Shown piece by piece: positions 13,620-63,495 of a DNA stretch of 64,000 bases. Each line of letters starts with the position of its first letter. Within the stretch, counting starts at the first letter, position 1. Source of the DNA: an uncultured Thiotrichales bacterium (GTDB lineage Bacteria > Pseudomonadota > Gammaproteobacteria > Francisellales > CACEW01); the NCBI GenBank assembly GCA_903870015.1, contig CAIQBE010000050.1, positions 15,984 to 79,983 on the forward strand, in the 5' to 3' direction. The notes below the pieces were generated by a model that saw only the letters and a list, made by a program, of their open reading frames with translations, did not search any database and had not been told where the DNA came from. The translations under genes and the position numbers were made by a program.

Positions 13620-13999
13620 ACACAAAAAACACAACAAAGCTCGAACTACTACGCTTTTTAATCATTGGAAGTATCAACACGCTCTTTAGCTATAGCTTAT
13701 TTTGCTTTTTCATCGCCATTAAAACACCCCATGTTCTTGCTATTAGCTTAGCCTACGTATGCGGCGTAACTTTTAATTTTCAAACCATTGGACGATTTGT
13801 GTTTAAATCTCATAATAATCGCTTAATTTTCAAATTTACTTTGGTATACCTATTACTTTACGTAATCAATCTTGGCACCATAGAGCTGACTAACCACTTT
13901 ATCGCGAACTGGTACTTAAGTGGCGGCATCACCTCGATTTTTTGCGCCGCAATATCATTTATTCTCAACAAATACTGGGTCTTTAAAAAAAGCTGCTAA
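13616..13999 (+). CDS. GtrA-family membrane protein (putative polyprenyl-phosphate-sugar flippase)
   Basis: 127 aa with 4 hydrophobic helices. N-terminal LLRFLIIGSINT and C-terminal NKYWVFK motifs typical of the GtrA family. Confidence 0.75.
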   Translation: MNTKNTTKLELLRFLIIGSINTLFSYSLFCFFIAIKTPHVLAISLAYVCGVTFNFQTIGRFVFKSHNNRLIFKFTLVYLLLYVINLGTIELTNHFIANWYLSGGITSIFCAAISFILNKYWVFKKSC

Positions 14000-16194: not shown

Positions 16195-16224
16195 AACCAC
16201 TCCTTCACATGAATTCAAAAGCAC

Positions 16225-23754: not shown

Positions 23755-24738
23755 TTATAATGAGTACAATGCACTTTTTTGAACAATAGCAACATAGTAC
23801 ACACCGCGATCGCCTTCGACAAGCTCAACCTCATGCAAATAAGGAGCCCAATCCTCTAAAGACCACGTCTCATTATAATAAGGGTAAAAAAAAGGCAATT
23901 TTTTACGCGCATTAATTTGCTCTAAAATTGCCAAACCTTCAGGCGTGGGCTGCTCATTATAAACCTGCTCTGCCATCAAGGCTGCATCAACAGCTGAAAC
24001 ATCATCTCTGATCATCATCCATGATACCACGCCCTGTTCATTTTTTAACAAAAAATTAACGGCATGATCCCACAAATAAAATTCCTTGATTTTTAATCTT
24101 TTAAGCGCACCTAAAAAAAACGAACTGAAAAAGCGATTATCTGACAAACAATGAGTAAATTTTCTATCACGCGGCACCATGCTATCAAAAATCAACCGCG
24201 ATAAATCTTGAAAATACGCAAACTGTAACTCAAACACACTTTTTTCAATCACGGCAAATAAATCTGGATCACTCTTTAAAATAAAGCGATCAATCAGACC
24301 ATCATTAAATGCGCTGACCGCAATCGTATAATCTGCCTCACCCGTAAGCAAAATTTTCTTCATCGGCAAATCACGAATTTCTTGACAAAACTCAAGACCG
24401 GTCATACCAGGCATAGCATAATCAATGATGATCACGGTAACTTGCTTGCCATGCTCAACACTATTGATTTCTTCGCGAATTTTACTTAAATCAATTTCCA
24501 AGCTACGTTTATCATGATGACTAATATCAAAAGTCTCATGACTACTGGCCACACGCTTAGTAAAAAAATCAGGTTTATATTGACGCAGCACCTCCAAAGC
24601 TTGAGCAGGTGCTGTAAAAAACTCAGACAAACCCAAGCCAATTAACTGCACAGATAACCATTGACTAAGACTAGGATCGTCATCAACAACAAGGGTAGTT
24701 GTAGGATGAAAACAGAAGGGAATCATTTGTTTAGCCAT
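23755..24738 (-). CDS. atypical response regulator: receiver domain with a ~45-aa insertion plus a ~190-aa C-terminal domain of unknown function (LqsR-like?)
   Basis: Receiver residues are present: LVVDDDPS, IIIDYAMPGMTG (acceptor Asp), LLTGEAD (T), FILKS (K). The acidic pair and the acceptor Asp are about 85 residues apart instead of about 45. There is no recognisable DNA-binding output. Only a 17-nt gap separates it from emrA. The start is uncertain (TTG 24744, ATG 24738 or ATG 24726). Confidence 0.7.
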   Translation of the reverse strand: MAKQMIPFCFHPTTTLVVDDDPSLSQWLSVQLIGLGLSEFFTAPAQALEVLRQYKPDFFTKRVASSHETFDISHHDKRSLEIDLSKIREEINSVEHGKQVTVIIIDYAMPGMTGLEFCQEIRDLPMKKILLTGEADYTIAVSAFNDGLIDRFILKSDPDLFAVIEKSVFELQFAYFQDLSRLIFDSMVPRDRKFTHCLSDNRFFSSFFLGALKRLKIKEFYLWDHAVNFLLKNEQGVVSWMMIRDDVSAVDAALMAEQVYNEQPTPEGLAILEQINARKKLPFFYPYYNETWSLEDWAPYLHEVELVEGDRGVYYVAIVQKSALYSL

Positions 24739-24816
24739 GAACAATACCAGGAATTTATACTTAGGTCAGATCATACCAAAAGTTCAAAACAAATACTAGA
24801 TAGAGCCCACCCCCTA

Positions 24817-34757: not shown

Positions 34758-36152
34758 TTATACAGGAGCGACCAAAGCCCCTAAAGTATCTTGCGAAGCC
34801 AAAGACGCCGCAGGCCTTCTACGAAGACAACAGCAGAAAACCCCTTGTATCGCCTCTCTCCAAGATTGTGCACGCTCGACAACTTCTCGCTCCTCTGGAA
34901 ATATCTGATCCATAGGCTTAATGGGCCTAAAACAACCAAAAACCCCAGGAACGACAACTTGCCCCTGAGCCGACACCGCACTTGCAGCTGCGCTTGAGTC
35001 TAGTGCAACCACACCTTCGGTGACAGCTGCAACAGAAACTGGAGCTGCCCCCAGCTCAAGCTTATTTCTTAAACGCACTGCCAAGCCATAAGAATTCACA
35101 AAAAACGCACACACTGAGATCACATAGAGCAAAGCCTCATGATCACCCGCTTGAAAAGCGGATGGCGCGATAGAACCAAAAGCGACAAACCCGGTAAAGG
35201 CCAATAAACCTATACGCAAAGGTAAATCAGCACGATCTGACACAAACATAGCCGCAACTTGCTTGGATAACTCAACAAAGCCTCTTTGCGCAAACAAAAC
35301 ACAAAAAGCACCTCGCGTGAGCGCCGAAACATAAGCCATCCAAGGTGCCGTCGTAATTAAATCCGCCAAATAATGATTAAACGGATCATGAAATTCACCC
35401 TGATGCTCAGGAAATCCCTCTAAAGTATTTGCAAAAACTTTATAAGCACCTAGCCCCAAAAATAGCCCCACAGCCAACGAAGGGAGAAGAGCACGCAACT
35501 CAAAGGTATTTTTAGGTTTAAAAACACTAGCAATCATATTCGGCAGCTGAAAAGTACCCGAAGAAAATAATGCCGTAACAAAGACTAAAGCATAGATATC
35601 ATTAAAAATTTGGAACATCAAACTAGCCCAATCAGGCAAATGGTGAGGCGAATCGCCAGAAAAGGCTTCAATACCTTCCTGACCAGGAATTTTAGTGGTA
35701 AAACTAGTATTAAACGCAGCAAAGACCACCAACAAGCCAAGCGCAAGTTTTGCAGCCTCCCCAAGCCCTTCCGAACAAGAGCTTACACCTCTTACACGAT
35801 GTAAATATTGCTTTAGCGGCAATGCCAAATCCTCTTCAACCGCCAACACATCAAAATAAACATTGGCTAAAACCGCACACAATACAAAATAAACGCCATA
35901 GCCCCATTGCTTGGCGGGCGTATCATATTTGGCCGCCTGCGCAGCACTCGTGAAACCATAATTGATAGAGGTAAATACAGCCACCAAAAGCGCGATATAA
36001 AAAGCTGCTTGTTTTTCCCCCGCGGTTAACTTAACAGACTCATGAGCTGCGGACCCCTCTGGCGGTGCCGGATGAGGTTGAAGTGGCTGCAGAGGCACTA
36101 CCACATCAAATGCAGGCTGCGAATTAGTGGGTTGATCAGAATCGTATGTCAT
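34758..36152 (-). CDS. hypothetical polytopic membrane protein (ORFan)
   Basis: 464 aa. Pro/Gln-rich N-terminus, about 10 hydrophobic segments, and an Ala/Ser/Val-rich C-terminal region with a CCC motif. Visibly GC-richer than its neighbours. No motif recognised. Confidence 0.6.
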   Translation of the reverse strand: MTYDSDQPTNSQPAFDVVVPLQPLQPHPAPPEGSAAHESVKLTAGEKQAAFYIALLVAVFTSINYGFTSAAQAAKYDTPAKQWGYGVYFVLCAVLANVYFDVLAVEEDLALPLKQYLHRVRGVSSCSEGLGEAAKLALGLLVVFAAFNTSFTTKIPGQEGIEAFSGDSPHHLPDWASLMFQIFNDIYALVFVTALFSSGTFQLPNMIASVFKPKNTFELRALLPSLAVGLFLGLGAYKVFANTLEGFPEHQGEFHDPFNHYLADLITTAPWMAYVSALTRGAFCVLFAQRGFVELSKQVAAMFVSDRADLPLRIGLLAFTGFVAFGSIAPSAFQAGDHEALLYVISVCAFFVNSYGLAVRLRNKLELGAAPVSVAAVTEGVVALDSSAAASAVSAQGQVVVPGVFGCFRPIKPMDQIFPEEREVVERAQSWREAIQGVFCCCLRRRPAASLASQDTLGALVAPV

Positions 36153-36221
36153 AAGAATATTCCTTAATTCTAAATTTTTATAATGCTGGGATGTATGAGA
36201 AAAATAAAAAGGGCCAGAGTA

Positions 36222-36344
36222 TTATGCCTGACCAGGCATACCCATCATCATAGACAGAACGACAAAAAAAGCTAACAGAGATGCGCCAGTGACAATGACC
36301 ACCGGAACTAAAGAAACCACTTTTGCTTTAGCTTGTTTACGCAT
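36222..36344 (-). CDS. possible 40-aa small membrane protein
   Basis: MRKQAKAKVVSLVPVVIVTGASLLAFFVVLSMMMGMPGQA: a basic N-terminus and a single TM helix. Lies ~70 nt upstream of, and co-oriented with, the 464-aa membrane protein gene. The RBS is weak (AAGGA, 12-nt spacing). An 8-bp palindrome (36223-36240) spans the stop codon. Below the ORF-track size cutoff. Confidence 0.3.
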   Translation of the reverse strand: MRKQAKAKVVSLVPVVIVTGASLLAFFVVLSMMMGMPGQA

Positions 36345-36486
36345 TTTCTTACAAAATCCTTATGAATACTGGGATTATATCCAAAAAACATATTTATGTC
36401 AAACAAATTTTTTATGGGCACCTTATTATACAATTATCTATTTTTTTGATATAATAACCCTATAGTACGTAGGTAAGGAGTAAATA

Positions 36487-36921
36487 ATGGATCTGAAAAA
36501 ACCCGGCTCAAACTTTACCAATGAACATGGCAAATTAGATGTAAAGCGGCTTTTGAACGCTAGCTCAAAGATATTGCCTAATTTTATTAATAAACGCAAA
36601 CACAAAGATAGCGAAAGCGGTGGTAACGAAAGTGGCACACCCGGCTATAGCAATAGCAGCACTGCAGTTCTTGAGGTAATTGCCGCCATTGCTGCAGCCG
36701 ACCAACGCCCGCACTACTCACCCTCTAATAGCAAAGATGCGGTCAACGCGCTTGCCGCCAGCGCACAAAACGCTTTAGATCTTTCTGCCGGCCTCGGCAT
36801 GACGCCCGGCAGAAGCAGCTTTCCTGACCATCAGTATCCTAGCGGAATTAATCCTGATTATGCTAAAAAAGGGGCCAAAGCTTCAGATCACAATAAAAAA
36901 GGACCGGAAGATAAACCATAA
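36487..36921 (+). CDS. hypothetical low-complexity protein (ORFan)
   Basis: 144 aa. AAGGAG RBS 7 nt upstream. Predicted largely disordered (Ser/Gly/Asn/Lys/Pro-rich) with one short hydrophobic/Ala-rich segment. Confidence 0.55.
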   Translation: MDLKKPGSNFTNEHGKLDVKRLLNASSKILPNFINKRKHKDSESGGNESGTPGYSNSSTAVLEVIAAIAAADQRPHYSPSNSKDAVNALAASAQNALDLSAGLGMTPGRSSFPDHQYPSGINPDYAKKGAKASDHNKKGPEDKP

Positions 36922-36924
36922 AAA

Positions 36925-38334
36925 CTATTCCTTGTCATCTAACCTAAAATTCGCCGCGGTAACAAAATCTCTAATTGTTGGCTTCACCACCGCTTTTTTC
37001 TGCGGACGAATACGAATACAACCATTAAAAAACAAAGAATGCTTTGGAAATACTAACTCTTTATCAATGCTCAGATTTTCAAATAATTTCATAAAACGTG
37101 CATCCTCCTCAATCGCAGGGGTAACATCAGTAACGACTTCCTCACCATTGCCTTGGGGATGAAAAAACTCAAACTCAACTTCTTGCAAGGTTTGATACAA
37201 AATGGTATTTTCGAGCGAGATCGGAAATTTATTTTCCAAAACCTGCTGCTTAAAAGAATAAATCAAATTACGAATTTCCATGAGCTCATCAACCGTACGA
37301 TTGGCATTAGAGCGTTCAGGGATATGATATAAAAACGTATGGCGCTGCAAAGAATAATAAATCGGTTCCGAGCGATTATAATAATTAAGCTCCATAAACA
37401 CTGGCAGGTAATAACGAATACGATACGTATTTAAAAAAATATCTCGAAGACCCGCAAGCGGACCTTGATCATTGGTCTCTACCGGAACAAAACCAGGAAC
37501 CTCACCCATGGCAAGCTTAATAATATGCTTGACCGTTTCAACCACAAACGGCGTATTTTTAATACCCGCCGCTAATTTATCGGTAAAGACTGACCAAATC
37601 AAATCATACATCATTTGATTACTAGAGAACTGGTTATATTTGATGATTTGTTTCGCCAAGATCACCTGAACTTCCTGATCTTTCTCCATTAAATCAAATA
37701 AGGGCCGAGTAAAGAGCAAGACCTCAGTATGCCATGGATCTTTAAACTCTGGGGCTTGCGCTAACTCTCTAAATAATGCCCATTGTTCTGGAAAATGCTT
37801 GGGGCATAAGTATTGTTTATTGATCGTAAAGTTTTTGCTGAGACGCTCGTTATACTGCTCATGAGAAATTTTTGGCAATACTAATAATGAACGAGAACCT
37901 GCAGTATAACTATACGCCATATTCACCGCATGGCTTTTTTTATCAGTATAAAAAAGATTATAAATACTAAAAACAGCCCCTGGCTTTAAAATTCTTAAAG
38001 GAATAAGATGGGATGGCAAATCCACAAAACATTCTAATGAGCCCTTCATTACCGCCATCGTCGGCATGAAATTATAAGGATAATCCAAAAGCTTAAGATA
38101 TTCAGAAGGAAGATCTGGATCATTATAGGGCAACAACTTATTTTGATAGGTGAGTTTGAGCTTACCGCATTCAACCACAGGATCACCATAACGATAACGT
38201 AACTTAATAAAAGGATTTTTGACATTCGCCGCAAGTCTAGACAAAGGTTCATAGAGATCCGGAAGCAAGGTTTTTACTTGCGCCGAGACATCTTGCCAAC
38301 TTAAAATTTCGAAATTATTTGCTTCTGCTACCAC
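36925..38334 (-). CDS. hypothetical protein (ORFan) downstream of kdpC
   Basis: 469 aa, soluble, Tyr/Phe/Leu-rich. No P-loop, no HExxH and no repeat seen. GTG start with no clear RBS, so the start is uncertain. Its stop lies 3 nt from the stop of the convergent 144-aa gene. Confidence 0.6.
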   Translation of the reverse strand: MVAEANNFEILSWQDVSAQVKTLLPDLYEPLSRLAANVKNPFIKLRYRYGDPVVECGKLKLTYQNKLLPYNDPDLPSEYLKLLDYPYNFMPTMAVMKGSLECFVDLPSHLIPLRILKPGAVFSIYNLFYTDKKSHAVNMAYSYTAGSRSLLVLPKISHEQYNERLSKNFTINKQYLCPKHFPEQWALFRELAQAPEFKDPWHTEVLLFTRPLFDLMEKDQEVQVILAKQIIKYNQFSSNQMMYDLIWSVFTDKLAAGIKNTPFVVETVKHIIKLAMGEVPGFVPVETNDQGPLAGLRDIFLNTYRIRYYLPVFMELNYYNRSEPIYYSLQRHTFLYHIPERSNANRTVDELMEIRNLIYSFKQQVLENKFPISLENTILYQTLQEVEFEFFHPQGNGEEVVTDVTPAIEEDARFMKLFENLSIDKELVFPKHSLFFNGCIRIRPQKKAVVKPTIRDFVTAANFRLDDKE

Positions 38335-38415: not shown

Positions 38416-38991
38416 CTATAAAGCATCCAAAGCTTGATTTAAATTTAACACATTCACGCGTGGCTCACCCAAAAAACCAAGCTGTCTTGGCGTAATATGT
38501 GTAGCAATAAGGGTATTAACCGTGGCAACAGGAAGATGACGCAATGCCGCAATACGAGGCGCCTGATAATAGGCTGAGGCCAAAGAAATATCGGGATCAA
38601 GACCACTGGCTGAAGCAGTAATTAAATCAATCGGAATCAACTGGGTTTGATCAGGATCTTCTTTTTGCAAAAATGCCGCACGCGTTTTTAATGAGGCTAA
38701 TAATTGAGGGCTAGTGGGACTTAAGCTTGAACCACCAGAGGCCAAGGCATTATAAGCCGGACTAGCCGCAGAGGGTCGAGAAAAAAAGTACTTAGGATTT
38801 TGAAAACTCTGGCCAATCAGACGGGACCCGATCACCTGCCCTTGTGTATTTTGGATTAAACTCCCCGTCACCTGCTGCGGAAAAAAAAGCCGCCCCACAC
38901 CAGTGATAAACAAAGGATACAATATTCCTAACAAAATGCTCAAAAATACCATTGCCATAAAACTTCTACGTAGCTGTGACCAAAATGACAT
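38416..38991 (-). CDS. kdpC: potassium-transporting ATPase subunit KdpC
   Basis: 191 aa. N-terminal TM helix, then SGGSSLSPTS and ASGLDPDIS motifs. Confidence 0.92.
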   Translation of the reverse strand: MSFWSQLRRSFMAMVFLSILLGILYPLFITGVGRLFFPQQVTGSLIQNTQGQVIGSRLIGQSFQNPKYFFSRPSAASPAYNALASGGSSLSPTSPQLLASLKTRAAFLQKEDPDQTQLIPIDLITASASGLDPDISLASAYYQAPRIAALRHLPVATVNTLIATHITPRQLGFLGEPRVNVLNLNQALDAL

Positions 38992-39003
38992 CGTACTTAT
39001 CTC

Positions 39004-41085
39004 CTACGCTAAATGTAAAAAAGTTAAAACCATATCAATCAACTTAATGCCAATAAAGGGAACAAGCAAACCAGCTCCCCCATAAATTAAGCTATTAATT
39101 CTTAATAAGGAGAGTGCAGACACCTGACGATATTTCACCCCTCGCAACGCCAAAGGAATTAAGAAAATAATAATCAAAGCATTAAAAATAACAGCAGACA
39201 AGATAGCACTATCAGGGCTCGTTAAATGCATAATATTGAGGGCATGCAATGCCGGATAGGTACCGACAAAGGCAGCTGGAATAATAGCAAAATATTTAGC
39301 AATATCATTGGCAATACTAAAAGTAGTGAGCGCACCACGAGTCATAAGCAGCTGCTTACCAATCTCAACAATTTCTAATAATTTCGTTGGATTTGAATCC
39401 AAATCTACCATATTGCCCGCTTCTTTTGCAGCTTGCGTTCCGGTATTCATAGCCAAAGCCACATCTGCCTGAGCCAAGGCTGGTGCATCATTGGTACCAT
39501 CCCCCGTCATCGCAACCAAACGACCATCGGCTTGCATATTGCGGATATATTTCAATTTATCCTCAGGCGTTGCATTCGCTAAAAAGTCATCAACACCAGC
39601 CTCAGCAGCAATCGCTGCTGCAGTCAGTGGATTATCCCCAGTCACCATAATGGTTTTAATACCCATTTTACGCAAAGCCGCAAAACGCTCTTTAATTCCG
39701 CCTTTCACAATATCTTTAAGACGAATCACCCCTAAAACATGGGCACCATCAGCAACAACTAAAGGCGTACCACCTTGCTGAGCAACACTATCAACAAGAT
39801 CCTTCACTGCGGGTGGGAAGGCCCCCCCTAATTTCTCAACATGCGCCTTGACCGCATCAGCAGCCCCCTTGCGAATACTACGCCCCGGAACGCCCGGCAT
39901 ATCCACACCACTCATCCGTGTTTGTGCCGTAAAGGGGACAAAAGTCGCTTGTAACTCCGTTAAATCCCTACCACGCAAACCATGCTGCTCTTTAGCCAAA
40001 ACGACAATACTACGCCCTTCTGGCGTCTCATCGGCGAGTGAGGATAATTGTGCCGCATCTGCTAATAACTCTAAAGTCACACCAGGGGCTGGCAAAAATT
40101 CTGTCGCCTGACGATTTCCGAGCGTAATCGTACCCGTTTTATCAAGCAACAATACATCGACATCCCCTGCCGCCTCAACTGCACGCCCAGACATCGCGAT
40201 CACATTAGCACGAATCATGCGATCCATACCGGCAATACCAATTGCCGACAACAAACCACCAATTGTGGTAGGCGCAAGACAGACAAATAACGCTACCAAT
40301 ACAGTCAAGCCGACCACCACACCTTGACCTGACGCAGTCACGCTATAAATAGAAAACGGCAACAAAGTCGCACATACTAATAAAAACACAATGGTTAAAG
40401 TCACAAGCAAAATATTTAAAGCAATTTCATTAGGCGTCTTTTGGCGCTTGGCACCTTCGACTAAGCCAATCATATGATCTAAAAAGCTTTCACCCGGATT
40501 CGTTGAAATCTTAATAATCAGCCAATCAGATAAGACTTGGGTACCGCCAGTCACAGAACTACGATCCCCACCGCTTTCACGAATCACAGGCGCACTCTCA
40601 CCAGTAATCGCACTTTCATTGACTGAGGCTACCCCTTCGATCACCTCACCATCACCAGGAATAAAATCACCCGCCTCAACCAAAACGATATTGCCCATAT
40701 GCAAATCGCTTGAGGGAATCATCTTAAACGCACTATTGCGCTTAGGCTCTGCTAAAAGCTTCGCCTGAGTATCACGCCTAGCTTTACGCAAAGTATCAGC
40801 CTGGGCTTTACCACGCCCCTCTGCAACTGCCTCCGCAAAATTCGCACACCACAAGGTAAACCAAAGCCACAAAGTAATCGCTAAAATAAAAGTGCTAGGA
40901 GCATCTTTAAAATTAAAAAAACTGAGGACAAACAAAAGCGTGGTAAACCAAGCACCCACATACACCGTAAACATCACGGGATTTTTAACTTGCTTCATGG
41001 GAGATAGTTTCGTAAACGCCCCAATAAAAGCTTCTTTTAAAATATGGGGTTCGAACAATGAAAGTTTTTGAGTTTTATGATTCAT
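39004..41085 (-). CDS. kdpB: potassium-transporting P-type ATPase subunit KdpB
   Basis: 693 aa. DKTGTIT phosphorylation site, TGDNPLTA and [10 protein letters not shown]. Confidence 0.97.
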
Positions 41086-41093
41086 GATTGACC

Positions 41094-42836
41094 TTATACG
41101 TTATACATTTGTAATTGTTCTGCGATAGGACCTAAGATTAACGAGGGCATAAACGTCAACCCAGCAATAATCAAGACCACAAACACTAACATCCCAATAA
41201 AAAAGCCACTATAAGTAGGCAGTGTACCAGCACCGACAGGAATATGTTTTTTAGCAGCTAGAGAGCCTGCAATCGCGATAACCGGAATAATGACACCAAA
41301 ACGCCCCAGCAACATAATGAGACTGCCGAGTATATTAAAGAAATTATTATTAACATTAAGCCCCGCAAAAGCACTACCGTTATTATTCGCCATTGAAGTA
41401 AAAGCATAAAGCAGTTCAGTAAAGCCATGCGCTCCGGAGTTACCTAAATTAGCAAGTATACTTTTATCAACCGCAGCAAAAGCCGTAGGAATCAACACAA
41501 TCGTTGGAATCAGTAACACAACTAAAGCTGCCATTTGTATTTCAAAGGCCTCAATTTTTTTACCCAAATATTCCGGGGTACGCCCAACCATCAGGCCTGC
41601 AATAAACACCGTCAAGATCACCATCAACAACAAGCCATAAAGCCCTGTGCCAATACCACCATAGACAACCTCACCCAACTGCATTAAAAACAAAGACACC
41701 ATACCACCCATCGGCGTGTAAGAGTCAACAACACTATTCACTGAACCATTGGATGCAGCAGTCGTAGCCACAGCATACAACGAAGAATCATCAATACCAA
41801 AGCGCAACTCTTTGCCTTCCATATTACCGCCAGGGGCTGCATGCACTCCGAGATTTTGCTGAATATCCACATTAGCAATTTGGCTCAAAGCAGGATTACC
41901 AATGTGTTCAACATAATTAGACAAACAAGCAAACGGAATAAAAATAATCGTCATTGCAAAAAATAGCGCCCAACCCTGACGCGTATCACGCACCATACGG
42001 CCAAAGGTATAACACAAAGCCGCAGGAATTAAAATCAAGGCAATCATTTCAAAAAAATTACTTAACGGCGTTGGATTCTCAAAAGGATGCGCTGAGTTCG
42101 CATTAAAAAAGCCACCACCATTCGTGCCCAATTCTTTAATAGCCTCTTGTGATGCCACAGGGCCCATTGGAATGGTTTGCGTTAAGGCACTATTACTAAC
42201 ATCAAGTACATGCGCGGTAACATAAGGGCTAAAATTCTGCAATACTCCTTGCGACATCAATACGATTGCCCAAATAATTGACAAAGGCACAAGGATATAA
42301 AGAATACCTCTAATCAAATCGACCCAGAAATTACCAAGATCTTTAGTCTCTTTGCGAATAAAACCACGAATCAACACAAGTAAAACCGAAAAACCCGTCG
42401 CAGCTGAAATAAAGTTATGAACTGCAAGCCCAATCATTTGACTAAAATAACTCATCGTGGCCTCACCACCATAAGCCTGCCAATTGGTATTCGTCATAAA
42501 GCTAACTGCGGTATTGAGCGCCAAAGGAAAAGATAGATTATCAAGATGGGCAGGATTAAGCGGCAACCATTTTTGAACGAGTAAAATCAGCAAAAGAAAA
42601 ATAAAAGACATAAAATTAAATGCCAGTAACGCACCCAAATATTGCTTCCAATCCATTTCACGTGCCGCATTAACACCACAAGATTTATAAAAAAGCCGCT
42701 CCACAGGACCAAACACACGCCCCAAAAAAGTAGACCTCTGTTCAAAAACAGCCGCCATATAAGCACCAAGCGGCTTAACTAATAACAATACCACAATCAT
42801 AAAAATCGAAAGTTGCAAAATAGCATTCTCGGTCAT
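41094..42836 (-). CDS. kdpA: potassium-transporting ATPase subunit KdpA
   Basis: 580 aa, polytopic. [10 protein letters not shown] and GTNGGGF selectivity-filter-like motifs. Confidence 0.95.
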
Positions 42837-42882
42837 GGCGACACTCTTAGTTTTTTAACATTTGTCCCAATATCTTATACTG

Positions 42883-43185
42883 CTAACTATGAACACGCAA
42901 TTCGCGAGATGCCTCACTATTTTTTTTGGCAACTCCCTTTTGAAGCGGATGCTCTAATATAAACTGCCGCCCCGAAGCGCTCAGTGTAAAAATCCGCGCC
43001 GGCTTGCGCGCATATTGGTTCATCCATCTAATTTCCCGATCAATCATCCCTTCTTTTAAAAGGTTAGCGACAGCCATATTTTTCTTTGCCGCACGCTGAC
43101 GATGAAAATAACGATAGAGCTCAGTTTGAGTTAAAGCACCATGACGCAATAATGATCGTAGTATCCTTTTTTCAAAAATATCCAT
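42883..43185 (-). CDS. small winged-helix-like putative DNA-binding protein upstream of kdpA
   Basis: 100 aa. The pattern looks like helix-turn-helix plus wing (LTQTELYRYF ... AVANLLKEGMI ... ARIFTLSASG). Basic C-terminal tail. 46 nt upstream of kdpA on the same strand. Confidence 0.5.
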   Translation of the reverse strand: MDIFEKRILRSLLRHGALTQTELYRYFHRQRAAKKNMAVANLLKEGMIDREIRWMNQYARKPARIFTLSASGRQFILEHPLQKGVAKKNSEASRELRVHS

Positions 43186-43311
43186 ATTTGACCCACACCT
43201 ATGTTAATTGAACAATATACAAACAGACCGTAATTTACCACAAAAAACAATGGTGATCAAATAAAAATCACCTTCCCGGCAAAAACCACAAGACCATCCC
43301 AGCCCAACTCA

Positions 43312-43340
43312 TTGACAACCCTAGTATTTATGGGTATTCT
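43312..43340 (+). promoter_or_regulatory. candidate sigma70 promoter for phhAB
   Basis: TTGACA - 17 nt - TATTCT, 33 nt upstream of the phhA ATG. Confidence 0.4.
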
Positions 43341-43372
43341 GGAGGATATAAGCACCATAGAAGGAATACACT

Positions 43373-44185
43373 ATGAACAGCACCCCACGTTACGTCGCCC
43401 GCCCGCCTGATGCGAATGGCTTTATTGAATACACACCCGACGAACATAAAGTGTGGGAAACGCTCTATCAACGCCAAGTAAAGCTAATCGAAGGTCGAGC
43501 CTGCGACGCCTATTACGAAGGCGTGCTTCGACTGGGACTTAATCATCATAAAATTCCGCAATGCAAAGATGTCACCGATGTACTGCAATCCTTAACTGGA
43601 TGGTCAGTGACCCCAGTTGCTGCACTCATTTCATTTAAAGAATTTTTCGATCTCATTGCCAACCGCACATTTCCTGCCGCAAGCTTTATTCGACGGATAG
43701 AAGACTTGGATTATTTACAAGAACCTGATATTTTTCACGAAATTTTCGGTCATGGCCCACTATTAACCGACCCTGCTTTTGCCGCTTTTACTGAAGCTGT
43801 AGGTCAATTTGGCAAAACAGTTTTGCCGGAAGATCGCAAAATGCTAGCGCGTCTCTATTGGTTTACCGTAGAGTTTGGCTTGATCCAACATGGCCCAGAT
43901 TTAAAAATCTTTGGCGCAGGCATTTTATCCTCAAAAACTGAAAGCACCTATGCCTTAGATAGCGAGATCCCACAACGCAAGCCTTTTGATCTACTTGAAG
44001 TACTGCGCATGCCCTATCGCTACGATCAATTACAAAAAACTTATTTTATTATCAATAGCTTTGATGAACTTTATAACATGATCAACGGCAATTTAAATGA
44101 AGTGTTTAAAGAAGCCAAAGCCCTAGGCATGTTACCCGATCCTTTTGCTGAAAATCATGATCCCGATGACGTAAGGAGTTGCTAA
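43373..44185 (+). CDS. phhA: phenylalanine 4-monooxygenase
   Basis: 270 aa. PDIFHEIFGHGPLL iron-binding motif and YWFTVEFGL. Confidence 0.93.
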   Translation: MNSTPRYVARPPDANGFIEYTPDEHKVWETLYQRQVKLIEGRACDAYYEGVLRLGLNHHKIPQCKDVTDVLQSLTGWSVTPVAALISFKEFFDLIANRTFPAASFIRRIEDLDYLQEPDIFHEIFGHGPLLTDPAFAAFTEAVGQFGKTVLPEDRKMLARLYWFTVEFGLIQHGPDLKIFGAGILSSKTESTYALDSEIPQRKPFDLLEVLRMPYRYDQLQKTYFIINSFDELYNMINGNLNEVFKEAKALGMLPDPFAENHDPDDVRSC

Positions 44186-44512
44186 ATGTTAAATCAAAAA
44201 AAATGCCAAGCCTGCGAAGGCTTTTCAGAAGCCCTTGATCTTGACACCGCTACAAGATTTCTAAAAGAAACCCCAGAATGGCAATTAAACCCGGATCACA
44301 AAGCAATCGAGCGCCATTTTGAATTTAAAGGCTTTAATAAAGTCATGGGCTTTGTCAACGCCGTTGCCTGGATCGCCAATCAAGAAGGCCATCATCCGGA
44401 TATCAAACTGGGATACAACTATTGCAATATTATCTATACAACGCACGCCTTAAATGGCTTATCTGAGAATGATTTTATTTGCGCCGCTAAGATCGACCAG
44501 TTACTAATATAA
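44186..44512 (+). CDS. phhB: pterin-4-alpha-carbinolamine dehydratase
   Basis: 108 aa. EGHHPD motif. Starts immediately after phhA. Confidence 0.92.
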   Translation: MLNQKKCQACEGFSEALDLDTATRFLKETPEWQLNPDHKAIERHFEFKGFNKVMGFVNAVAWIANQEGHHPDIKLGYNYCNIIYTTHALNGLSENDFICAAKIDQLLI

Positions 44513-44517
44513 ACAAC

Positions 44518-44593
44518 TGGTAGGCACGAGTGGAATCGAACCACCGACCCCCACCATGTCAAGGTGGTGCTCTAACCGCTGAGCTACGTGCCT
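44518..44593 (-). tRNA. tRNA-Val (anticodon GAC)
   Basis: 76-nt cloverleaf: AGGCACG acceptor, anticodon loop TTGACAT, GGTTCGATTCC T-arm, encoded CCA. Confidence 0.92.
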
Positions 44594-44806
44594 AATTTAA
44601 GTGTGGCATTCTATAACACTTATCAAAGAAACTCAAATTTATTTGCAGTACTTTGTATACCCAATGCATTTAAAAGGTATAAAAGTAGATCACTACTTTT
44701 AAACACCATAAAAAAACACTAATAAAAAAATATAAGAGTAACCTTAATTGACAATAATAAACTTTATGAAATAATAAGATCAACCCAATCAACATAGACC
44801 ACCCCA

Positions 44807-45955
44807 ATGGCATCAGCCCCCCCCCCAAAAGAAATCAGCGCAGCAAGCCTTAGCGAAGAACAAAAAGTAGAAAAAAGATTGACCGCGATAGAAACAAACA
44901 TTGCAGAGACAACACCAAACATAGACAAACTAGAAGAACCATTGAAAAGTGAGGCAAAAAGATACCTACATGATATAAGCAATTTACAATACAAAATCCG
45001 CTATATGGTCACAAGACTAAGCGATGAGGCTGAGTTACGCGAAAATACAGAATACGCCACCGGAGTAAATGACTGGATTGCATATCAAGAGACACTGACC
45101 CTCGAACTAATGCGTATAAGCGGAGCCCCTGGTCTACCACCATCAAAAAAAAGCGAACCTATAGAGCTTCAATCAAAATTAAGCCTGGTAACAACAATGC
45201 TAAGAATTCTTATCCAGGAAGAAAAAGGAGCTGCTGTAGAATTTCGCACACATTTTGAATTACCGCAGACCCCTACCCTGTTCAATCTAGACTGGTTAGC
45301 GCTAGAGCGCGTCATCATGAACCTCGTTGGCAATGCCATTAAATTTACAGAAACAGGCTTCATTCGTATATTCATTAAAACAACATTACAACCAGAAACT
45401 CAGCAAGCGCACTTAGAACTGTCTATCCGAGACACAGGTATGGGCATGACAGGTAGGGAATGTAGCCGCATATTTCAATCCGGAGTACAAGCAAATGACA
45501 CTATAAGAGCCACCTACGGGGGCACCGGCATAGGCTTAACTTACTGCAAGGATGCGGTCACAGCAATCGGCGGCGGCAGCATTGCCCTTAAAAGCAAAAA
45601 ACGCTTAGGTGGCGAAGACGGGGGAAATGTAGCGCAGATAGAAGATGAAGATACCGAACGCGTTACACGGATAGACGAACCTGATTGGGGCACAAAATTT
45701 AGCTTTAGCATAAGCTGCGGTTACTCACAAGCATTGGCAATAAGCGTTGCAGGGGGCGCAGGAACCTCAACCCCATGGAAAGAAACTCCTGCTGACACAC
45801 CCACCTCTACACCTATGAGCGGGATCACCACTCCGAGACCGCACCCAAGAGAATCAACACCCATTGCCGATTCGGCTGTGAGGGATGCTGGATCAGAGAC
45901 AACAGAAGAAAAGCCAGGCCTCGCTAAAAAAAGAGACTGCTGCGAAGTGCAGTAA
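44807..45955 (+). CDS. sensor-less histidine-kinase core protein (DHp-like + HATPase_c) with a Pro/Thr-rich tail
   Basis: 382 aa. H-box-like YLHDISNL. N-box VIMNLVGNAIKFT, G1 DTGMGM and G2 GGTGIGL. No TM or sensor domain. An acidic insertion lies after G2. C-terminus is ...PGLAKKRDCCEVQ. C10 tract at 44817-44826. No obvious RBS. Confidence 0.7.
   Translation: MASAPPPKEISAASLSEEQKVEKRLTAIETNIAETTPNIDKLEEPLKSEAKRYLHDISNLQYKIRYMVTRLSDEAELRENTEYATGVNDWIAYQETLTLELMRISGAPGLPPSKKSEPIELQSKLSLVTTMLRILIQEEKGAAVEFRTHFELPQTPTLFNLDWLALERVIMNLVGNAIKFTETGFIRIFIKTTLQPETQQAHLELSIRDTGMGMTGRECSRIFQSGVQANDTIRATYGGTGIGLTYCKDAVTAIGGGSIALKSKKRLGGEDGGNVAQIEDEDTERVTRIDEPDWGTKFSFSISCGYSQALAISVAGGAGTSTPWKETPADTPTSTPMSGITTPRPHPRESTPIADSAVRDAGSETTEEKPGLAKKRDCCEVQ
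44817..44826 (+). repeat. homopolymeric C10 tract in codons 4-7 of the HK-core gene
   Basis: Counted directly: GCC CCC CCC CCA (A-P-P-P). Confidence 0.95.
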
Positions 45956-46030
45956 TACGAGCAAGGAAAAATTAGAGCCATTAGAGTGCCCCATGATTTG
46001 GGAAAGAGCCTATGAAGTAAGGAATGGCAC

Positions 46031-46079
46031 GCCGAGCCGTAGCGCTATTGGCCTTTAGCCAATACAGCGCGAAGGCTGG
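46031..46079 (-). repeat. tRNA-trailer hairpin element, copy B (abuts the CCA end of tRNA-Gly)
   Basis: 49 nt, about 84% identical to 20939..20986. The stem attggc/gccaat carries a compensatory double change relative to copy A. Confidence 0.6.
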
Positions 46080-46152
46080 AGCGGGAAACGAGGCTCGAAC
46101 TCGCGACCTCAACCTTGGCAAGGTTGCGCTCTACCAACTGAGCTATTCCCGC
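46077..46152 (-). tRNA. tRNA-Gly (anticodon GCC)
   Basis: 76-nt cloverleaf: GCGGGAA acceptor, anticodon loop TTGCCAA, AGTTCGAGCCT T-arm, encoded CCA. Confidence 0.93.
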
Positions 46153-46187
46153 ATTTAGGAGTTGCTATTCTAACGAATTATTTGCAT

Positions 46188-46216
46188 TTGTCAATTAGAA
46201 AATGAAGTGTTATAAT
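46188..46216 (+). promoter_or_regulatory. candidate sigma70 promoter for rne
   Basis: TTGTCA - 17 nt - TATAAT. It predicts a ~320-nt 5' UTR. Confidence 0.5.
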
Positions 46217-46222
46217 AAAAAA

Positions 46223-46542
46223 ACTTACAGAGTGCTTAAATTTTAGCTTACACTCATTGTTGTACCGCTCACGAAGAGCATGTTCTAGCCCTGTAAGCAT
46301 AAGCGCAATAGCCTTAAATAAGCATTGCATGAGCCAGCCAATAGATTGAGCTGTGTATAAAAAACGTAGATTTCTACCAGGATTCGTTAATGCTACTTTT
46401 AAAGTCACTAACTAACCAAAGCCTTGATACATCAAGAGCTTTACGCGCTAAAAGCGCCAAAAATCCTCGCCTGTCTCCACCACGAGACAGTTAGACTGCG
46501 TGTACCTGTACCCAGCTTAATCCAAAAAAAGGATTAAGTAAC
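46223..46542 (+). promoter_or_regulatory. long structured rne 5' leader (possible autoregulatory UTR)
   Basis: ~320 nt with no credible ORF. Hairpins: ctgtctc-caccac-gagacag (7 bp), gcgc-taaaa-gcgc, and taatcc-aaaaaaa-ggatta, which overlaps the RBS region. Confidence 0.45.
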
Positions 46543-48873
46543 ATGACTAAAAAGATACTAATAAACGCCACCCAGGCAGAAGAGATTCGCGTCGCCATTA
46601 TCGAGCAAAACACCCTTGTTGACCTTGATATCGAAGCCAGTCACCGCATTCAAAAGAAAGCCAATATATACAAAGCCAAGGTTTCCAGGATCGAACCCAG
46701 CCTGAACGCTGTATTCGTAGACTACGGCGCTGACCGCCACGGCTTCTTACCCATTAAAGAACTCGCCCCAGACTACATGGATCATAATCGCCCTAAGTTA
46801 TCTGAAGGCCAAGAAATCATTATCCAAATCGAAAAAGAAGAGCGCGGAACCAAGGGCGCAGCCGTTACTACCTTCATCACCCTAGCGGGCTGCTATTTGG
46901 TACTGATGCCCAACAGCCATCGCTCAGGCGGTGTTTCACGCCGTATCGAAGGCGATGACCGCCAACAGCTCAAAGAGCTGCTAGAAGGCTTAACCATCCC
47001 CGAGGATATGAGCGTTATTGCGCGCACTGCTTGCCTAGGCCGCACTCAAGAAGAATTACAATGGGACTTAGATAGCCTTTTAAAACTATGGACAACCGTT
47101 CAAGAGGAAATGCAAAAAAATCGCGCACCTTTCTTAATTTATCAAGAAAGCGATGTTATTATGCGCTCAGTACGTGATTATTTACGCCAAGATATTGAAG
47201 AAATCATCGTCGATGAACGCAAAACTTACGAACGCGTCTTGGACTTAGTACGTAATTTACGCCCTGATTTTGCAGAACGTGTACGCTTCTACCATAATGA
47301 TATTGGACTATTTACCTATCATCGTGTTGAAAGCCAGATCGAAACCGCCTATCAACGTGAAGTTAAATTACCCTCAGGTGGCGCAATTGTCATTGACCAT
47401 ACCGAAGCCTTAACCTCAATCGACATCAACTCCTCTCGGGCGACCAAAGGTGGAGACATCGAAGAAACAGCATTCCAAACCAACCGCGAAGCAGCACGTG
47501 AAGTCGCGCGCCAAATGAAATTACGTGACTTGGGCGGCTTGATAGTTATCGACTTTATCGACATGGAAAATCCAAAAAATCAACGCATTGTTGAAGATGA
47601 GTTAAGCGAAGCCGTGAAAAGCGATCGCGCACGCATCCAAACCGGTAAGATTTCACGTTTTGGCTTATTAGAACTCTCACGCCAACGCCTACGCCCTTCT
47701 TTAGAGGAGTCAAGCGGCATGATGTGCCCACGTTGCAGCGGCCAAGGTACTATTCGGGGTGTTGAGTCCCTATCTTTATCCATCATTCGCCTGATTCAAG
47801 AAGAAGCCATGCGCGCAGATACGCTTGAAGTCCACGTACAATTGCCTATTCCATTGGTAACCTTCATTTTAAATGAAAAACGTAATGTGATTTCACAAAT
47901 TGAGACCCAAAATAAAATCCGCGTGGTACTGATCCCCAACGCCAATCTCGAAACCCCGCATTATCAACTCACCAAAGTGACGCAATCCACCGATGAAGTC
48001 ACCCCTAGCTATATGATGCAAGTGCCTGTGACCACAGAAACTTATACCACGACTCAAGTGAAACTTAAAGAAGTTGAACAACCAGCGATCAAAAGCCTAA
48101 GCATCGAAGCAGCGCCAGTACGCGCCAGCTTTTTGAAAAAAACCCTGGGCGACTTGATCAGCAAAATAGGCAAAATATTCAGCGGCTCTGGCAATAATAA
48201 AAAAGACCGCAACAATGAAAACCGCAACAAAGGCTCATACGGCAACAACCGACGTAATGGCGGCAACAATAGCAACCGCGGCCAACGTGGAAACTCACGC
48301 AATCGCAACGACAATCGTCGCCGCACCGGAGGAGCGCCAGGAACAGGAGCAAGACCAGAACGCACGGAGCGCAACGACAGAAATGATCGCCGCCCTCAAC
48401 AAAACAACCGCACCGCAGGATCACAACAAACTCGCTCACCAAAACCCGCAGGCCCTGCCGATGCGCCCGCAGCAAAAGTGCGCGAGTTTACGCTCTCACC
48501 ACGTGAAACAGTAGCGCCAAAAGTTGAAAACGAAAAAATAATAGCAAAACCAGTAATTCTCGAATTCAACGAAAAAGCAGCTGCACCTCAAAGCGCACCA
48601 GAACCCAGAGAAATAAGCCCTCAAGTACGCACATTATTGGGCGGTGACGGCTTAAACGCTAATAACACCAACCAAGTGCAAAGCGCTAAAGCAACACATA
48701 GTGAACCAAAACTTCAACGCGAAGAAGTAGTACAAAAAACCAATTTCGCCGCTGACGAAGTACGCGAAGCGTTAAGAAAACAGCATGAACAAAGTGGTGA
48801 GCGTGTCGAAACTAAAGTCGCAGCACAAACTGCCAGCAACCCACACTTAAGCAAAGATATTGCAGAGCTATAA
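46543..48873 (+). CDS. rne: ribonuclease E
   Basis: 776 aa. S1 plus catalytic domain (MKKILINATQAEE..., DFIDM). Zn-link CPRCSGQG. Arg/Asn-rich disordered C-terminal half. Confidence 0.95.
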   Translation: MTKKILINATQAEEIRVAIIEQNTLVDLDIEASHRIQKKANIYKAKVSRIEPSLNAVFVDYGADRHGFLPIKELAPDYMDHNRPKLSEGQEIIIQIEKEERGTKGAAVTTFITLAGCYLVLMPNSHRSGGVSRRIEGDDRQQLKELLEGLTIPEDMSVIARTACLGRTQEELQWDLDSLLKLWTTVQEEMQKNRAPFLIYQESDVIMRSVRDYLRQDIEEIIVDERKTYERVLDLVRNLRPDFAERVRFYHNDIGLFTYHRVESQIETAYQREVKLPSGGAIVIDHTEALTSIDINSSRATKGGDIEETAFQTNREAAREVARQMKLRDLGGLIVIDFIDMENPKNQRIVEDELSEAVKSDRARIQTGKISRFGLLELSRQRLRPSLEESSGMMCPRCSGQGTIRGVESLSLSIIRLIQEEAMRADTLEVHVQLPIPLVTFILNEKRNVISQIETQNKIRVVLIPNANLETPHYQLTKVTQSTDEVTPSYMMQVPVTTETYTTTQVKLKEVEQPAIKSLSIEAAPVRASFLKKTLGDLISKIGKIFSGSGNNKKDRNNENRNKGSYGNNRRNGGNNSNRGQRGNSRNRNDNRRRTGGAPGTGARPERTERNDRNDRRPQQNNRTAGSQQTRSPKPAGPADAPAAKVREFTLSPRETVAPKVENEKIIAKPVILEFNEKAAAPQSAPEPREISPQVRTLLGGDGLNANNTNQVQSAKATHSEPKLQREEVVQKTNFAADEVREALRKQHEQSGERVETKVAAQTASNPHLSKDIAEL

Positions 48874-48914
48874 CAGGAAAAGCATCTTGAGGCTAACAGC
48901 CTCAGGATGCTTGT

Positions 48915-50189
48915 TTAGAGCGCAATCACTGTAAAATCTAAATACTTATGCAACGCCTCGGGAATATGAATATTCCCAGCCTCATCTTGATAATTTTCCA
49001 TAATGGCCACAAGGGTACGGCCAACTGCCAAACCCGAACCATTTAAAGTATGGACCAATTCATTTTTTTGTGTCTTCGCATCTTTAAAGCGCGCCTGCAT
49101 ACGCCGCGCCTGGAAATCCAGAAAATTACTGCAAGAGGAAATTTCGCGATAACAATTTTGCGCTGGCACCCAAACTTCCAAATCATAAGTCTTGGCTGCG
49201 CCATTACCAGTATCACCGGTACATAACAACATCACGCGATAAGGCAAACCTAGTTTTTGCAAAATGACTTCTGCATGCTGGGTAATTTCTTCAAGCGCCG
49301 CCCATGATTGCGAAGGATGCACGACATGAACTAACTCAATTTTTTCAAACTGATGCTGACGAATCATACCACGGGTATCTTTACCCGAACTCCCAACTTC
49401 ACTACGAAAACACGGAGTATGTGCCGTAAGCTTCAAAGGCAAATCTGCTTCATTGAGCACCATTTCACGAACAGTATTGGTCAATGAAACCTCAGCCGTC
49501 GGAATCAAATTAAGATTAAAAGGAACCGTTGTTTTAAAAAAATCATCGGCAAATTTAGGCAATTGGCCAGTACCATAAAAAGCCTCATCTTTTACCAAAT
49601 AAGGCACATACATTTCTTGATAGCCATGCTCACGCGTATGGGTATCGAGCATTAATTGAATCAAGGCGCGATGTAAAGCCGCTAATTGCCGACGCAACAC
49701 CACAAAACGAGCTCCAGACATTTTTGCTGCAACTTCAAAATCCATGGCCTGTAAAGCCTCGCCCAAAGCCACGTGATCTTTAGGCGTAAAACTAAATTGT
49801 TTGGGCGTACCTACACGACGCACTTCGACATTGTCGGCATCACTTGCTCCCGCTGGCACTGATGCATCAGGAATATTAGGAATATTTAACAAAAAGTCTT
49901 TAAATTGAATTTCGATCTGATTCAACTCTAATTCAAACCCTTGAAGCTGCGCATTAAGCGCCGCAGATTCCTGCATCAAATTTGTGGTATCTTCGCCTTT
50001 AGCTTTCGCCTGACCAATGGCTTTAGCAAACTTATTGCGCTCGCTTTGTAATTTTTCGGTCTGCGACTGCACGCTCTTACGCTGTTGTTCCAAACTTTGG
50101 AACAAAGACACATCCAAATCAAAGCCCTTTAAGCGCAATCTTGTTGCTACTTCGTCAATATTCGTACGTAATAATTTAGGATCAATCAT
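48915..50189 (-). CDS. serS: serine-tRNA ligase
   Basis: 424 aa. N-terminal coiled-coil arm and class II motifs (FRSEVGS..., TLNGSGLAVGRT). ATGA overlap with the rnpA stop. Confidence 0.95.
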   Translation of the reverse strand: MIDPKLLRTNIDEVATRLRLKGFDLDVSLFQSLEQQRKSVQSQTEKLQSERNKFAKAIGQAKAKGEDTTNLMQESAALNAQLQGFELELNQIEIQFKDFLLNIPNIPDASVPAGASDADNVEVRRVGTPKQFSFTPKDHVALGEALQAMDFEVAAKMSGARFVVLRRQLAALHRALIQLMLDTHTREHGYQEMYVPYLVKDEAFYGTGQLPKFADDFFKTTVPFNLNLIPTAEVSLTNTVREMVLNEADLPLKLTAHTPCFRSEVGSSGKDTRGMIRQHQFEKIELVHVVHPSQSWAALEEITQHAEVILQKLGLPYRVMLLCTGDTGNGAAKTYDLEVWVPAQNCYREISSCSNFLDFQARRMQARFKDAKTQKNELVHTLNGSGLAVGRTLVAIMENYQDEAGNIHIPEALHKYLDFTVIAL

Positions 50190-62859: not shown

Positions 62860-63495
62860 ATGAGTAATGTATACCTATATCAAACGCAAGACATAGATAC
62901 CGCAGAACAAATGCAGCTTGAAAGTTATGCAAAGCAAAAAGGCTTCAAAAACTTACACACTGTTACCGAAAGTGCGGACATGGAAACCAAATGGCAAGAG
63001 CGCAGCCTGGGCAAAACCCTCCACAACGCCAAAGCCGGCGATGTGATCGTGGCTTACGATAGTGTACAATTTACTAACTCCGCGGACCAAACCCTCGAAG
63101 TCCTCATTGACCTAGTTGGCCGGGGCATTAATTTGCACTTTGCGAAATACAATATGTCTTACGCCGGTGAAAAAAAATCTCAATTTAGCGAACTTGTAGG
63201 ATTGTTGCGCAAAATAGAATCAGACTATGTGAGCCGAAGAAATATAGAAGCCATCGAGCGTCGTCGCAAAATGGGCGTGGTACTCGGACGTCCTAAAGGC
63301 AGACAAAATAAAGCCCTTAAACTTGATAAATTCAAAAAAGAAATTACCCGTTACTTAGAACTTTCAATTAGCAAGGCCTCCATCGCAAAGCTAGTTAATT
63401 GCCACCCACAAACTCTTTATGATTGGATCGAACGCAACAGCATACCTGATCGCAAACCCAGAAAGCCTCGCACCAGAAAATTAGAAAATGCATAA
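62860..63495 (+). CDS. resolvase/invertase-like protein lacking the catalytic Ser and Arg residues (probable domesticated DNA-binding protein)
   Basis: 211 aa. Overall serine-recombinase layout: N-terminal domain, E-helix-like IERRRKMGVVLGRPKG, and a C-terminal HTH (SIAKLVNCHPQTLYDWIERN). The active-site block reads VYLYQTQDID instead of GYxRVSTxxQ, and DSVQFTN stands in place of DRLGRS. Confidence 0.6.
   Translation: MSNVYLYQTQDIDTAEQMQLESYAKQKGFKNLHTVTESADMETKWQERSLGKTLHNAKAGDVIVAYDSVQFTNSADQTLEVLIDLVGRGINLHFAKYNMSYAGEKKSQFSELVGLLRKIESDYVSRRNIEAIERRRKMGVVLGRPKGRQNKALKLDKFKKEITRYLELSISKASIAKLVNCHPQTLYDWIERNSIPDRKPRKPRTRKLENA

Follow-up and report, generated by a model that had tools for sequence, protein, structure and literature searches.

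A lone kinase gene between two tRNA genes

The window analysed here, 64,000 nucleotides of contig CAIQBE010000050.1 from an uncultured Thiotrichales bacterium (assembly GCA_903870015.1), contains a gene for a histidine kinase-like protein that had been proposed, from the letters of the DNA, to be a translocated, host-lipidated effector whose expression might toggle through slippage in a run of cytosines (hereafter the original prediction). The coding sequence (44807-45955, plus strand; 382 residues) specifies a kinase core followed by a disordered tail, and it is the sole open reading frame (ORF) between a tRNA-Val gene on the left (anticodon GAC; 44518-44593, minus strand; Rfam tRNA score 68.8 bits) and a tRNA-Gly gene on the right (anticodon GCC; 46077-46152, minus strand). 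Both tRNAs were called by ARAGORN and by Rfam, and their coordinates agree with the lone-gene arrangement first described. The roughly 210 nt of very AT-rich DNA noted upstream of the gene measure 213 nt with a GC content of 26% (44594-44806, plus strand), a region that would hold the promoter and a short 5' untranslated region. Within it lies a candidate sigma-70-type promoter (44748-44775, plus strand) composed of TTGACA, a 16-nt spacer and AATAAT with a TG extension, matching the consensus at 11 of 12 positions.

Homology searches across a word index of 5.8 billion proteins, together with an exhaustive profile search of 1.84 billion representatives, returned a family consisting of the window protein's own cluster and a single further member, P0002, hence two members among 15 billion proteins. 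Past P0002 there is a gap to E=1e-41, where generic multi-domain kinases appear. A protein scan of GTDB genomes for additional family members found nothing, and a profile scan of metagenomes recovered generic kinases only. P0002 (365 residues, 53% identical to the window protein) is encoded on a 1.4-kb contig (L002) and occupies the same slot, with tRNA-Val to its left and tRNA-Gly to its right. When the two loci were compared, the stretch at ~44700-44780 and the context of the ATG were found to be kept; the candidate promoter is near-identical and about 80 nt around it are also conserved, as are the start context CCCAATGGCATCAGC and the N-terminal residues MASA. Identity between the two proteins is 42% over the N-terminal part, 67% over the catalytic ATP-binding (CA) domain and 35% over the tail, with four of the last five residues shared. 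The ratio of non-synonymous to synonymous substitution rates (dN/dS) is 0.37 overall, and the values for the same three regions (0.57, 0.23 and 0.53, respectively) indicate that the gene is under purifying selection.

The distribution of the gene is very narrow: it is present at this slot in the window lineage and in L002, but the nearest relatives have no copy beside that tRNA-Gly. In a related contig whose seryl-tRNA synthetase (SerRS) is 79% identical (L085), the order serS-rne-tRNA-Gly is kept, the kinase gene is missing and other orphan genes lie past the tRNA. There, ORFs of 749 and 536 codons (12715-16654 of that contig) replace the kinase gene and tRNA-Val; neither product has a significant family match, and one marginal NCBIfam hit falls far below its cut-off. 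Because L085 holds other ORFs at this position, the slot beside tRNA-Gly appears to collect lineage-specific orphan genes. In another related contig (L003, RNase E 73% identical) the tRNAs and the kinase gene are all missing. Two further contigs from related populations (L093 and L094) stop at or inside tRNA-Gly and are therefore uninformative for synteny in closer relatives.

The description of the locus as a tRNA-flanked islet stands insofar as the slot is variable, the gene being missing in L085 and L003, but it does not extend to a mobile element. No att-like repeats and no integrase ORF were found at the slot borders, where the sole long repeat is the similarity of the tRNAs to one another, so the slot is variable rather than a demonstrable mobile island. 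A mobile genomic island was rejected on these grounds.

As a separate observation, contigs of three related populations end in or beside tRNA-Gly or the kinase gene (L093, 13052-13080; L094, 7243-7461; L084, 1-49), which suggests assembly breaks arising from repeats or strain heterogeneity. Rfam identified only the two tRNAs as RNA elements in and around the kinase gene. The antisense RNA family HPnc0260 gave a match below threshold (57.5 bits, gathering score 59) at 44410-44556 on the plus strand, across the end of phhB and the antisense of tRNA-Val; this match probably reflects similarity to the tRNA antisense strand. The 3' untranslated region of the kinase gene was considered as an RNA element and rejected, its fold being unremarkable (z = -2.3).

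The protein is a predicted sensor-less histidine kinase core

The only Pfam family recognised in the protein is HATPase_c (PF02518; residues 164-268, E=1e-16, 61.7 bits against a cut-off of 26.4). The CA domain that contains it spans residues 117-308 (45155-45730, plus strand) and carries recognisable N, G1, F and G2 boxes, including the N-box ERVIMNLVGNAIKFT, DTGMG as G1 and GGTGIGL as G2. In an alignment of 53 sequences the residues N172/N176, D209-G211-G213 and G239-G241-G243 are invariant. The Pfam match and the full set of boxes bear out the earlier claim of a complete catalytic ATP-binding domain. Among NCBIfam models the domain is closest to the hybrid kinases BarA, LuxQ, TorS and LetS (BarA, E=3e-25; LetS, E=1e-19), with scores all far under the family cut-offs (for BarA, 88 versus 890 bits). 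A match in the PDB, 7z8n (E=2e-14), is the GacS histidine kinase of Pseudomonas aeruginosa according to its Foldseek name. A eukaryotic origin of the kinase was also considered and rejected, the best matches being bacterial (Planctomycetes, Acidobacteria and Myxococcota).

An AlphaFold model built with 53 aligned kinases (mean predicted local distance difference test score, pLDDT, 75; predicted template modelling score, pTM, 0.72) comprises an N-terminal helix (17-39), a helical hairpin (46-71 and 77-104), the CA domain (117-308; pLDDT mostly above 88) and a disordered tail (309-382). Searched against the PDB with Foldseek, the model matches WalK, HK853, GacS, CpxA and RetS over 260-300 aligned columns, corresponding to DHp plus CA. 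AlphaFold, HMMER and Foldseek concur on a DHp-like hairpin at residues 46-104 (44942-45118, plus strand), in which H55 (44969-44971) lies within H-D-I-S-N. With a profile of the two orthologues, HMMER placed H55-D56-I-(S/R)-N without gaps on H-E-I-R-T, part of the SHEIRTP box of hybrid kinases, and in the same alignment E82-Y83 sits on the conserved E-Y at H+27/28. A second register, produced by MAFFT and by one HMMER alignment, sets EAKRYL on RAKSEFL and brings L60 to the histidine position. The kinase/phosphatase motif of HisKA domains is H-[ED]-x-x-[NT]; H-D-x-x-N corresponds to it, and on this match and the downstream spacing H55 is favoured over L60 as the predicted phospho-acceptor. Thus the H-box-like element first noted gains from the H55-D56 alignment, the hairpin and the DHp-plus-CA structural matches, but the Pfam HisKA model does not match the protein and the L60 register offers an alternative.

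The protein was further said to have neither a transmembrane segment nor a sensor domain, and no adjacent response regulator, and this proved correct. No membrane span was predicted (the highest hydropathy over 19 residues is 1.1), no sensor domain was found, and no response regulator gene adjoins the kinase gene, the nearest receiver-domain ORF being 20 kb away. That ORF (23755-24744, minus strand) encodes an orphan protein of 329 residues, in which 92-157 form a partial receiver domain and the C-terminal half is uncharacterised; no kinase gene lies beside it. Taken together, the results support a complete sensor-less DHp-plus-CA kinase core with predicted phosphorylation. A distinguishing element within the CA domain is an acidic insertion specific to the family (residues 264-294, KKRLGG...IEDEDTERVTRIDEPD; 45596-45688, plus strand), which is absent from the aligned kinases. 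The two orthologues have the same core, IEDEDTERVTR...EPDWGTKFSF; AlphaFold models this insertion of about 30 residues with low confidence, and it may be a docking surface.

Much of this would be expected of an ordinary cytoplasmic orphan histidine kinase, which we hold to be a serious, if less than even, possibility: a DHp dimer that autophosphorylates H55 and works with a response regulator encoded elsewhere, for example the product of 23755-24744, a possible partner should the kinase be an ordinary two-component protein. The core is complete and canonical with an H-D-x-x-N kinase/phosphatase motif, purifying selection acts on the CA domain (dN/dS 0.23), the promoter is conserved and the gene has apparently been inherited vertically between two species in the same slot, and an orphan receiver-domain protein is encoded within the window. 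However, the lack of an input domain leaves such a kinase with no evident regulation, a signalling kinase would not be expected to have so extremely narrow a distribution, and the gene is missing from close relatives.

Alternatively, the gene could be what is left of a hybrid sensor kinase after the loss of its sensor and receiver parts, now decaying into a pseudogene. The similarity of its CA domain to hybrid kinases, with no receiver or HPt domain downstream, and the missing Pfam HisKA match would fit such decay. Yet the catalytic boxes and the histidine are all intact in two species at 53% identity, dN/dS is below 1 in every region, and promoter and start context are conserved; we judge this explanation highly improbable.

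A disordered tail ends in a conserved CaaX-type box

The last 74 residues of the protein (309-382; 45731-45952, plus strand) form a Pro/Thr/Ser-rich tail that is predicted to be disordered, with pLDDT below 50 from residue 315. Short conserved islands (WKE, TPIA and SE..EE.P) are embedded within it. The window protein terminates in ...SETTEEKPGLAKKRDCCEVQ (KKRDCCEVQ) and P0002 in ...SEAAEEAPKPKQCCIVQ (CCIVQ). The end of the window protein is thus a CaaX-type box, C379-E-V-Q, with an adjacent upstream cysteine and KKR before it (C-C-E-V-Q; 45938-45952, plus strand). The box is kept as CC-x-V-Q, exactly terminal, in both family members, and its two cysteines are the sole cysteines of the tail. 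The kinase is also the only real ORF product of the window with a cysteine at position -4.

The polybasic, CaaX-like end reported earlier is therefore present, conserved as CC-x-V-Q in the sole orthologue, and both tetrapeptides are prenylation-positive in yeast. CEVQ and CIVQ belong to the 'prenylation (positive)' training set of Berger et al. 2022, derived from yeast Ras61/Ydj1 genetic screens, in which the calls stem from reporter contexts rather than from the kinase itself (PMC9231725). CEVQ is listed in the 'cleavage (negative)' set as well, and the combined model gives it as prenylated with p=0.94 and 'shunted' (PMC9231725). Farnesylation motifs of similar form occur in CENP-F (CKVQ) and CENP-E (CKTQ) (PMC4384735).

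Upstream of the box lies an acidic block, E-T-T-E-E, at positions -19 to -15 (45896-45910, plus strand), with EAAEE at -16 to -12 in P0002. The E block of Dot/Icm substrates has been described as 3-6 acidic residues within 6-10 positions, the first of them usually 11-18 residues before the C-terminus (PMC3096851). The block in the kinase tail matches this description, as a resemblance in sequence only. L. pneumophila strains have 7-11 CaaX effectors of such design (PMC13081727).

If the protein were an ordinary orphan kinase, the tail would be a flexible linker, the terminal vicinal cysteines would be redox or metal sensors or else play no part, and the likeness to a CaaX box would be coincidental. 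The length of a disordered tail with conserved motifs, and the exactly terminal position of CC-x-V-Q in both orthologues, speak against that account. In a decaying hybrid kinase the tail would be functionless former linker or intergenic sequence, yet the tail islands and the terminal box persist.

A start-proximal poly-C tract differs in length between assemblies

Codons 4-7 of the kinase gene (A-P-P-P) contain, as originally reported, a run of exactly ten cytosines (C10; 44817-44826, plus strand), a candidate slipped-strand on/off switch. It is the only G/C run of at least 9 in the window, where base composition predicts about 0.04. Alleles of nine or eleven cytosines (C9 or C11) would stop the ATG frame after 20 or 15 codons, respectively. 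The tract is specific to the window lineage, since the window codons GCC CCC CCC CCA correspond to GCG GCT ACC CCA in the orthologue.

Across 10,355 bp, a 12,563-bp metagenomic contig (L001; JGI 3300045654, also ENA ERZ1426746, with NCBI among its listed sources) aligns to window positions 38880-49233 with 0 mismatches and one gap, which is an eleventh C in the tract. Because of this additional base, the gene caller began the protein of that contig at a TTG, codon 25, giving a product of 358 residues. C10 is also seen in L083 (ERZ27313528) and is inferred from a 382-residue product in ERZ1426756 and other contigs. A8, T8 and C7 runs, together with a C8 run at 51-58, are unchanged in the same assembly comparisons. 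A DNA-pattern scan of metagenomes for other tract lengths found none. The C8 run lies inside a minus-strand ORF of 300 codons with no recorded Pfam hit, which is complete in L092 (2802-3704), and it has the same length in both assemblies.

The C10/C11 pattern is what a slippage switch would produce. Of the toggling by one cytosine that had been proposed, a length polymorphism between assemblies and its frame-breaking effect are found, but there is a single variant and a homopolymer error is possible. For an ordinary orphan kinase, C11 would stem from a fault in sequencing or assembly, or would represent a null allele, an account at odds with the tract being the sole change in 10 kb with other homopolymers unchanged. 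For a pseudogene in the making, the one frameshifted assembly would mark the inactivation step, whereas the C10 frame is intact in most assemblies.

Another contig (L084; ERZ18658644, BUCK21-1) opens with 49 unrelated nucleotides, after which it matches the window exactly from 44928 onwards. The unrelated nucleotides place an in-frame TAA directly upstream, so the gene call is only 316 residues long. The contig end could be chimeric; alternatively, the 5' part of the gene could truly have been rearranged or have received an insertion, and unrelated sequence joined inside the gene would suit the decaying remnant.

Host lineage and genomic context

Including about 13 kb of additional flanks, approximately 77 kb of DNA from this genome was inspected, and walks from the contig ends encountered housekeeping genes only. 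The original prediction borrowed its frame from Legionella, and this affiliation could not be established: SerRS is at most ~62-64% identical to organism-named matches, and these are diverse gammaproteobacteria, close relatives of SerRS and RNase E being found only in metagenomes. The best GTDB match of RNase E is a metagenome-assembled genome at 73% identity.

The best PDB matches of PhhA, SurE and enolase are 4BPT (L. pneumophila), 3TY2 and 3TQP (both Coxiella burnetii), with source organisms confirmed, and the entries that they out-scored include Salmonella SurE (2V4N) and Bacillus subtilis enolase (4A3R), whose organisms were likewise confirmed. For dihydrofolate reductase, 3TQ8 (which we take to be the Coxiella enzyme) scores above the 1DDR series (presumably E. 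coli), the commonest dihydrofolate reductase sequence in the PDB. These similarities give a weak hint of an affinity to Legionellales.

Several other genes of the window deserve mention. At 475-2565 (plus strand) a 696-residue GH18 chitinase is encoded, with a signal-peptide-like N-terminus and a long C-terminal region that has no family match; it is reminiscent of secreted chitinases from aquatic, host-associated bacteria. Beside kdpABC, three consecutive ORFs (34758-38334) belong to no Pfam or NCBIfam family, and encode a predicted membrane protein of 464 residues that carries a CCC motif close to the C-terminus, a 144-residue low-complexity protein and a 469-residue protein whose 90%-identity cluster includes many 38-residue fragments from many contigs. 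Between htpG and lpxA lies a gene (62860-63495, plus strand) for a 211-residue resolvase-type recombinase with a helix-turn-helix; because the exact protein occurs on at least 12 contigs, it may belong to a multi-copy or mobile element.

Discussion

We propose that the gene encodes a phase-variable, host-lipidated kinase effector, a reading to which we assign a probability of roughly 40%. Its combined features fit a translocated, lipidated on/off effector better than a housekeeping kinase, because the protein has no input domain, a disordered tail with conserved motifs and a terminal prenylatable CC-a-V-Q, and because the acidic block is spaced from the C-terminus as expected, the distribution is extremely narrow within a variable slot, and the start-proximal poly-C tract is polymorphic.

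Under this proposal, the ancestor of the soluble core would be a hybrid kinase of the GacS/BarA type, from which the sensor, membrane and receiver parts were lost and to which a disordered tail was added, and the protein would most likely act outside the bacterium. Expression would be driven from the gene's own, apparently strong promoter. Slippage of C10 by one base would move the ATG frame out of register and generate ON and OFF variants in the population. The protein would be exported into a eukaryotic (protist) host cell via a signal in its acidic, disordered C-terminus, where the host farnesyltransferase would attach a lipid to Cys379 in the CEVQ box. Acylation of the adjacent Cys378 may follow, and the basic residues together with the lipid would keep the kinase on a host membrane. 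There the ATP-dependent core would autophosphorylate H55, with phosphate passed to, or removed from, a receiver- or HPt-type partner. We infer export, host lipidation, membrane anchoring, the kinase target and reversibility of the switch from the features of the locus.

Histidine kinases, HPt proteins and receiver proteins occur in protists, amoebae among them. It is conceivable, albeit improbable, that an injected farnesylated kinase under poly-C control feeds or drains a protist His-Asp phosphorelay on the host membrane. We know of no earlier pathogen that hijacks eukaryotic two-component signalling with a kinase of its own.

Several observations weigh against a host-lipidated effector. No secretion-system genes or known effector families (Pfam, NCBIfam) were found in the window, its flanks of ~13 kb or the relatives' loci, a result that also favours the ordinary orphan kinase, and neither Legionella nor Coxiella is named among the best matches of SerRS or RNase E. 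An intact histidine and phosphatase motif fits an ordinary bacterial two-component kinase equally well. Prenylatability alone is weak, as about one third of all Cxxx ends are predicted to be prenylatable (PMC9231725), so that an orphan kinase could carry such an end by chance. Conservation of the box is likewise a statistic from two sequences only (p ~0.05 given 35% identity in the tail), and is compatible with the same alternative. A CEVQ end predicted to stay uncleaved ('shunted') would make a poorer membrane anchor, no other proteins ending in CxxX were found in the window or related loci, and the lone C11 assembly may have arisen through a homopolymer error.

Should the tail truly direct lipidation by a host, the CaaX-effector strategy would reach past Legionella to an uncultured freshwater lineage and to a further enzyme class, the histidine kinase core, and would raise the idea of bacterial interference with protist His-Asp signalling. 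To our knowledge, a histidine kinase core has not been described among prenylated effectors. If instead the protein is an orphan kinase, it would be an unusually minimal one, lacking an input domain and bearing a conserved cysteine-tipped tail, and could serve as a model of compact regulation. We note that the C-terminal box, the acidic block and the poly-C tract provide three simple, independent experimental handles.

Among known systems, the tail most resembles the prenylated effectors of L. pneumophila (AnkB, Pel/CMP), which have a cysteine at -4 in a farnesylatable box with basic residues before it, an acidic block in the last ~25 residues, a disordered C-terminus and no signal peptide. 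Unlike the Legionella Pels, to which it has no sequence homology, the protein has a two-component histidine kinase core as its catalytic part, its producer is not Legionella, no Dot/Icm system was seen in the ~77 kb, and its prenylation and translocation are predicted. No histidine kinase core is stated among the Pel effectors described in PMC13081727, within that paper's scope.

A second parallel is Salmonella SifA. The C-terminal CLCCFL of SifA is prenylated by the host and S-acylated. As in SifA, the kinase has a cysteine cluster at its extreme C-terminus, with one CaaX-type prenyl acceptor and an acylatable neighbour (here CC-E-V-Q and CC-I-V-Q). SifA is, however, a type III secretion system effector of unrelated fold, and in the kinase box X is Gln, which, unlike in SifA, would direct farnesyl rather than geranylgeranyl attachment.

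With the GacS/BarA/LetS hybrid kinases, the protein shares similarity in the CA domain and, in the favoured alignment register, the DHp histidine, the acidic residue and the EY spacing. It differs from them in lacking membrane segments and any HAMP, PAS, receiver or HPt domain, in its divergent H-box, and in possessing the 30-residue acidic CA insertion and the 74-residue disordered tail.

The tract, finally, recalls homopolymer contingency genes. A poly-C frameshift occurs in bvgS of Bordetella, itself a histidine kinase gene, and poly-G/C switches operate in Neisseria, Haemophilus and Campylobacter. In common with such genes, a G/C run of at least 9 lies in the 5' coding region, a one-base change kills the frame, and two tract lengths are seen between assemblies of otherwise identical DNA; in contrast to them, the variant comes from a single assembly and the window has no other hypervariable tract. 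CaaX effectors and homopolymer switches are thus known kinds, and it is the kinase-core cargo and the lineage that would be new.

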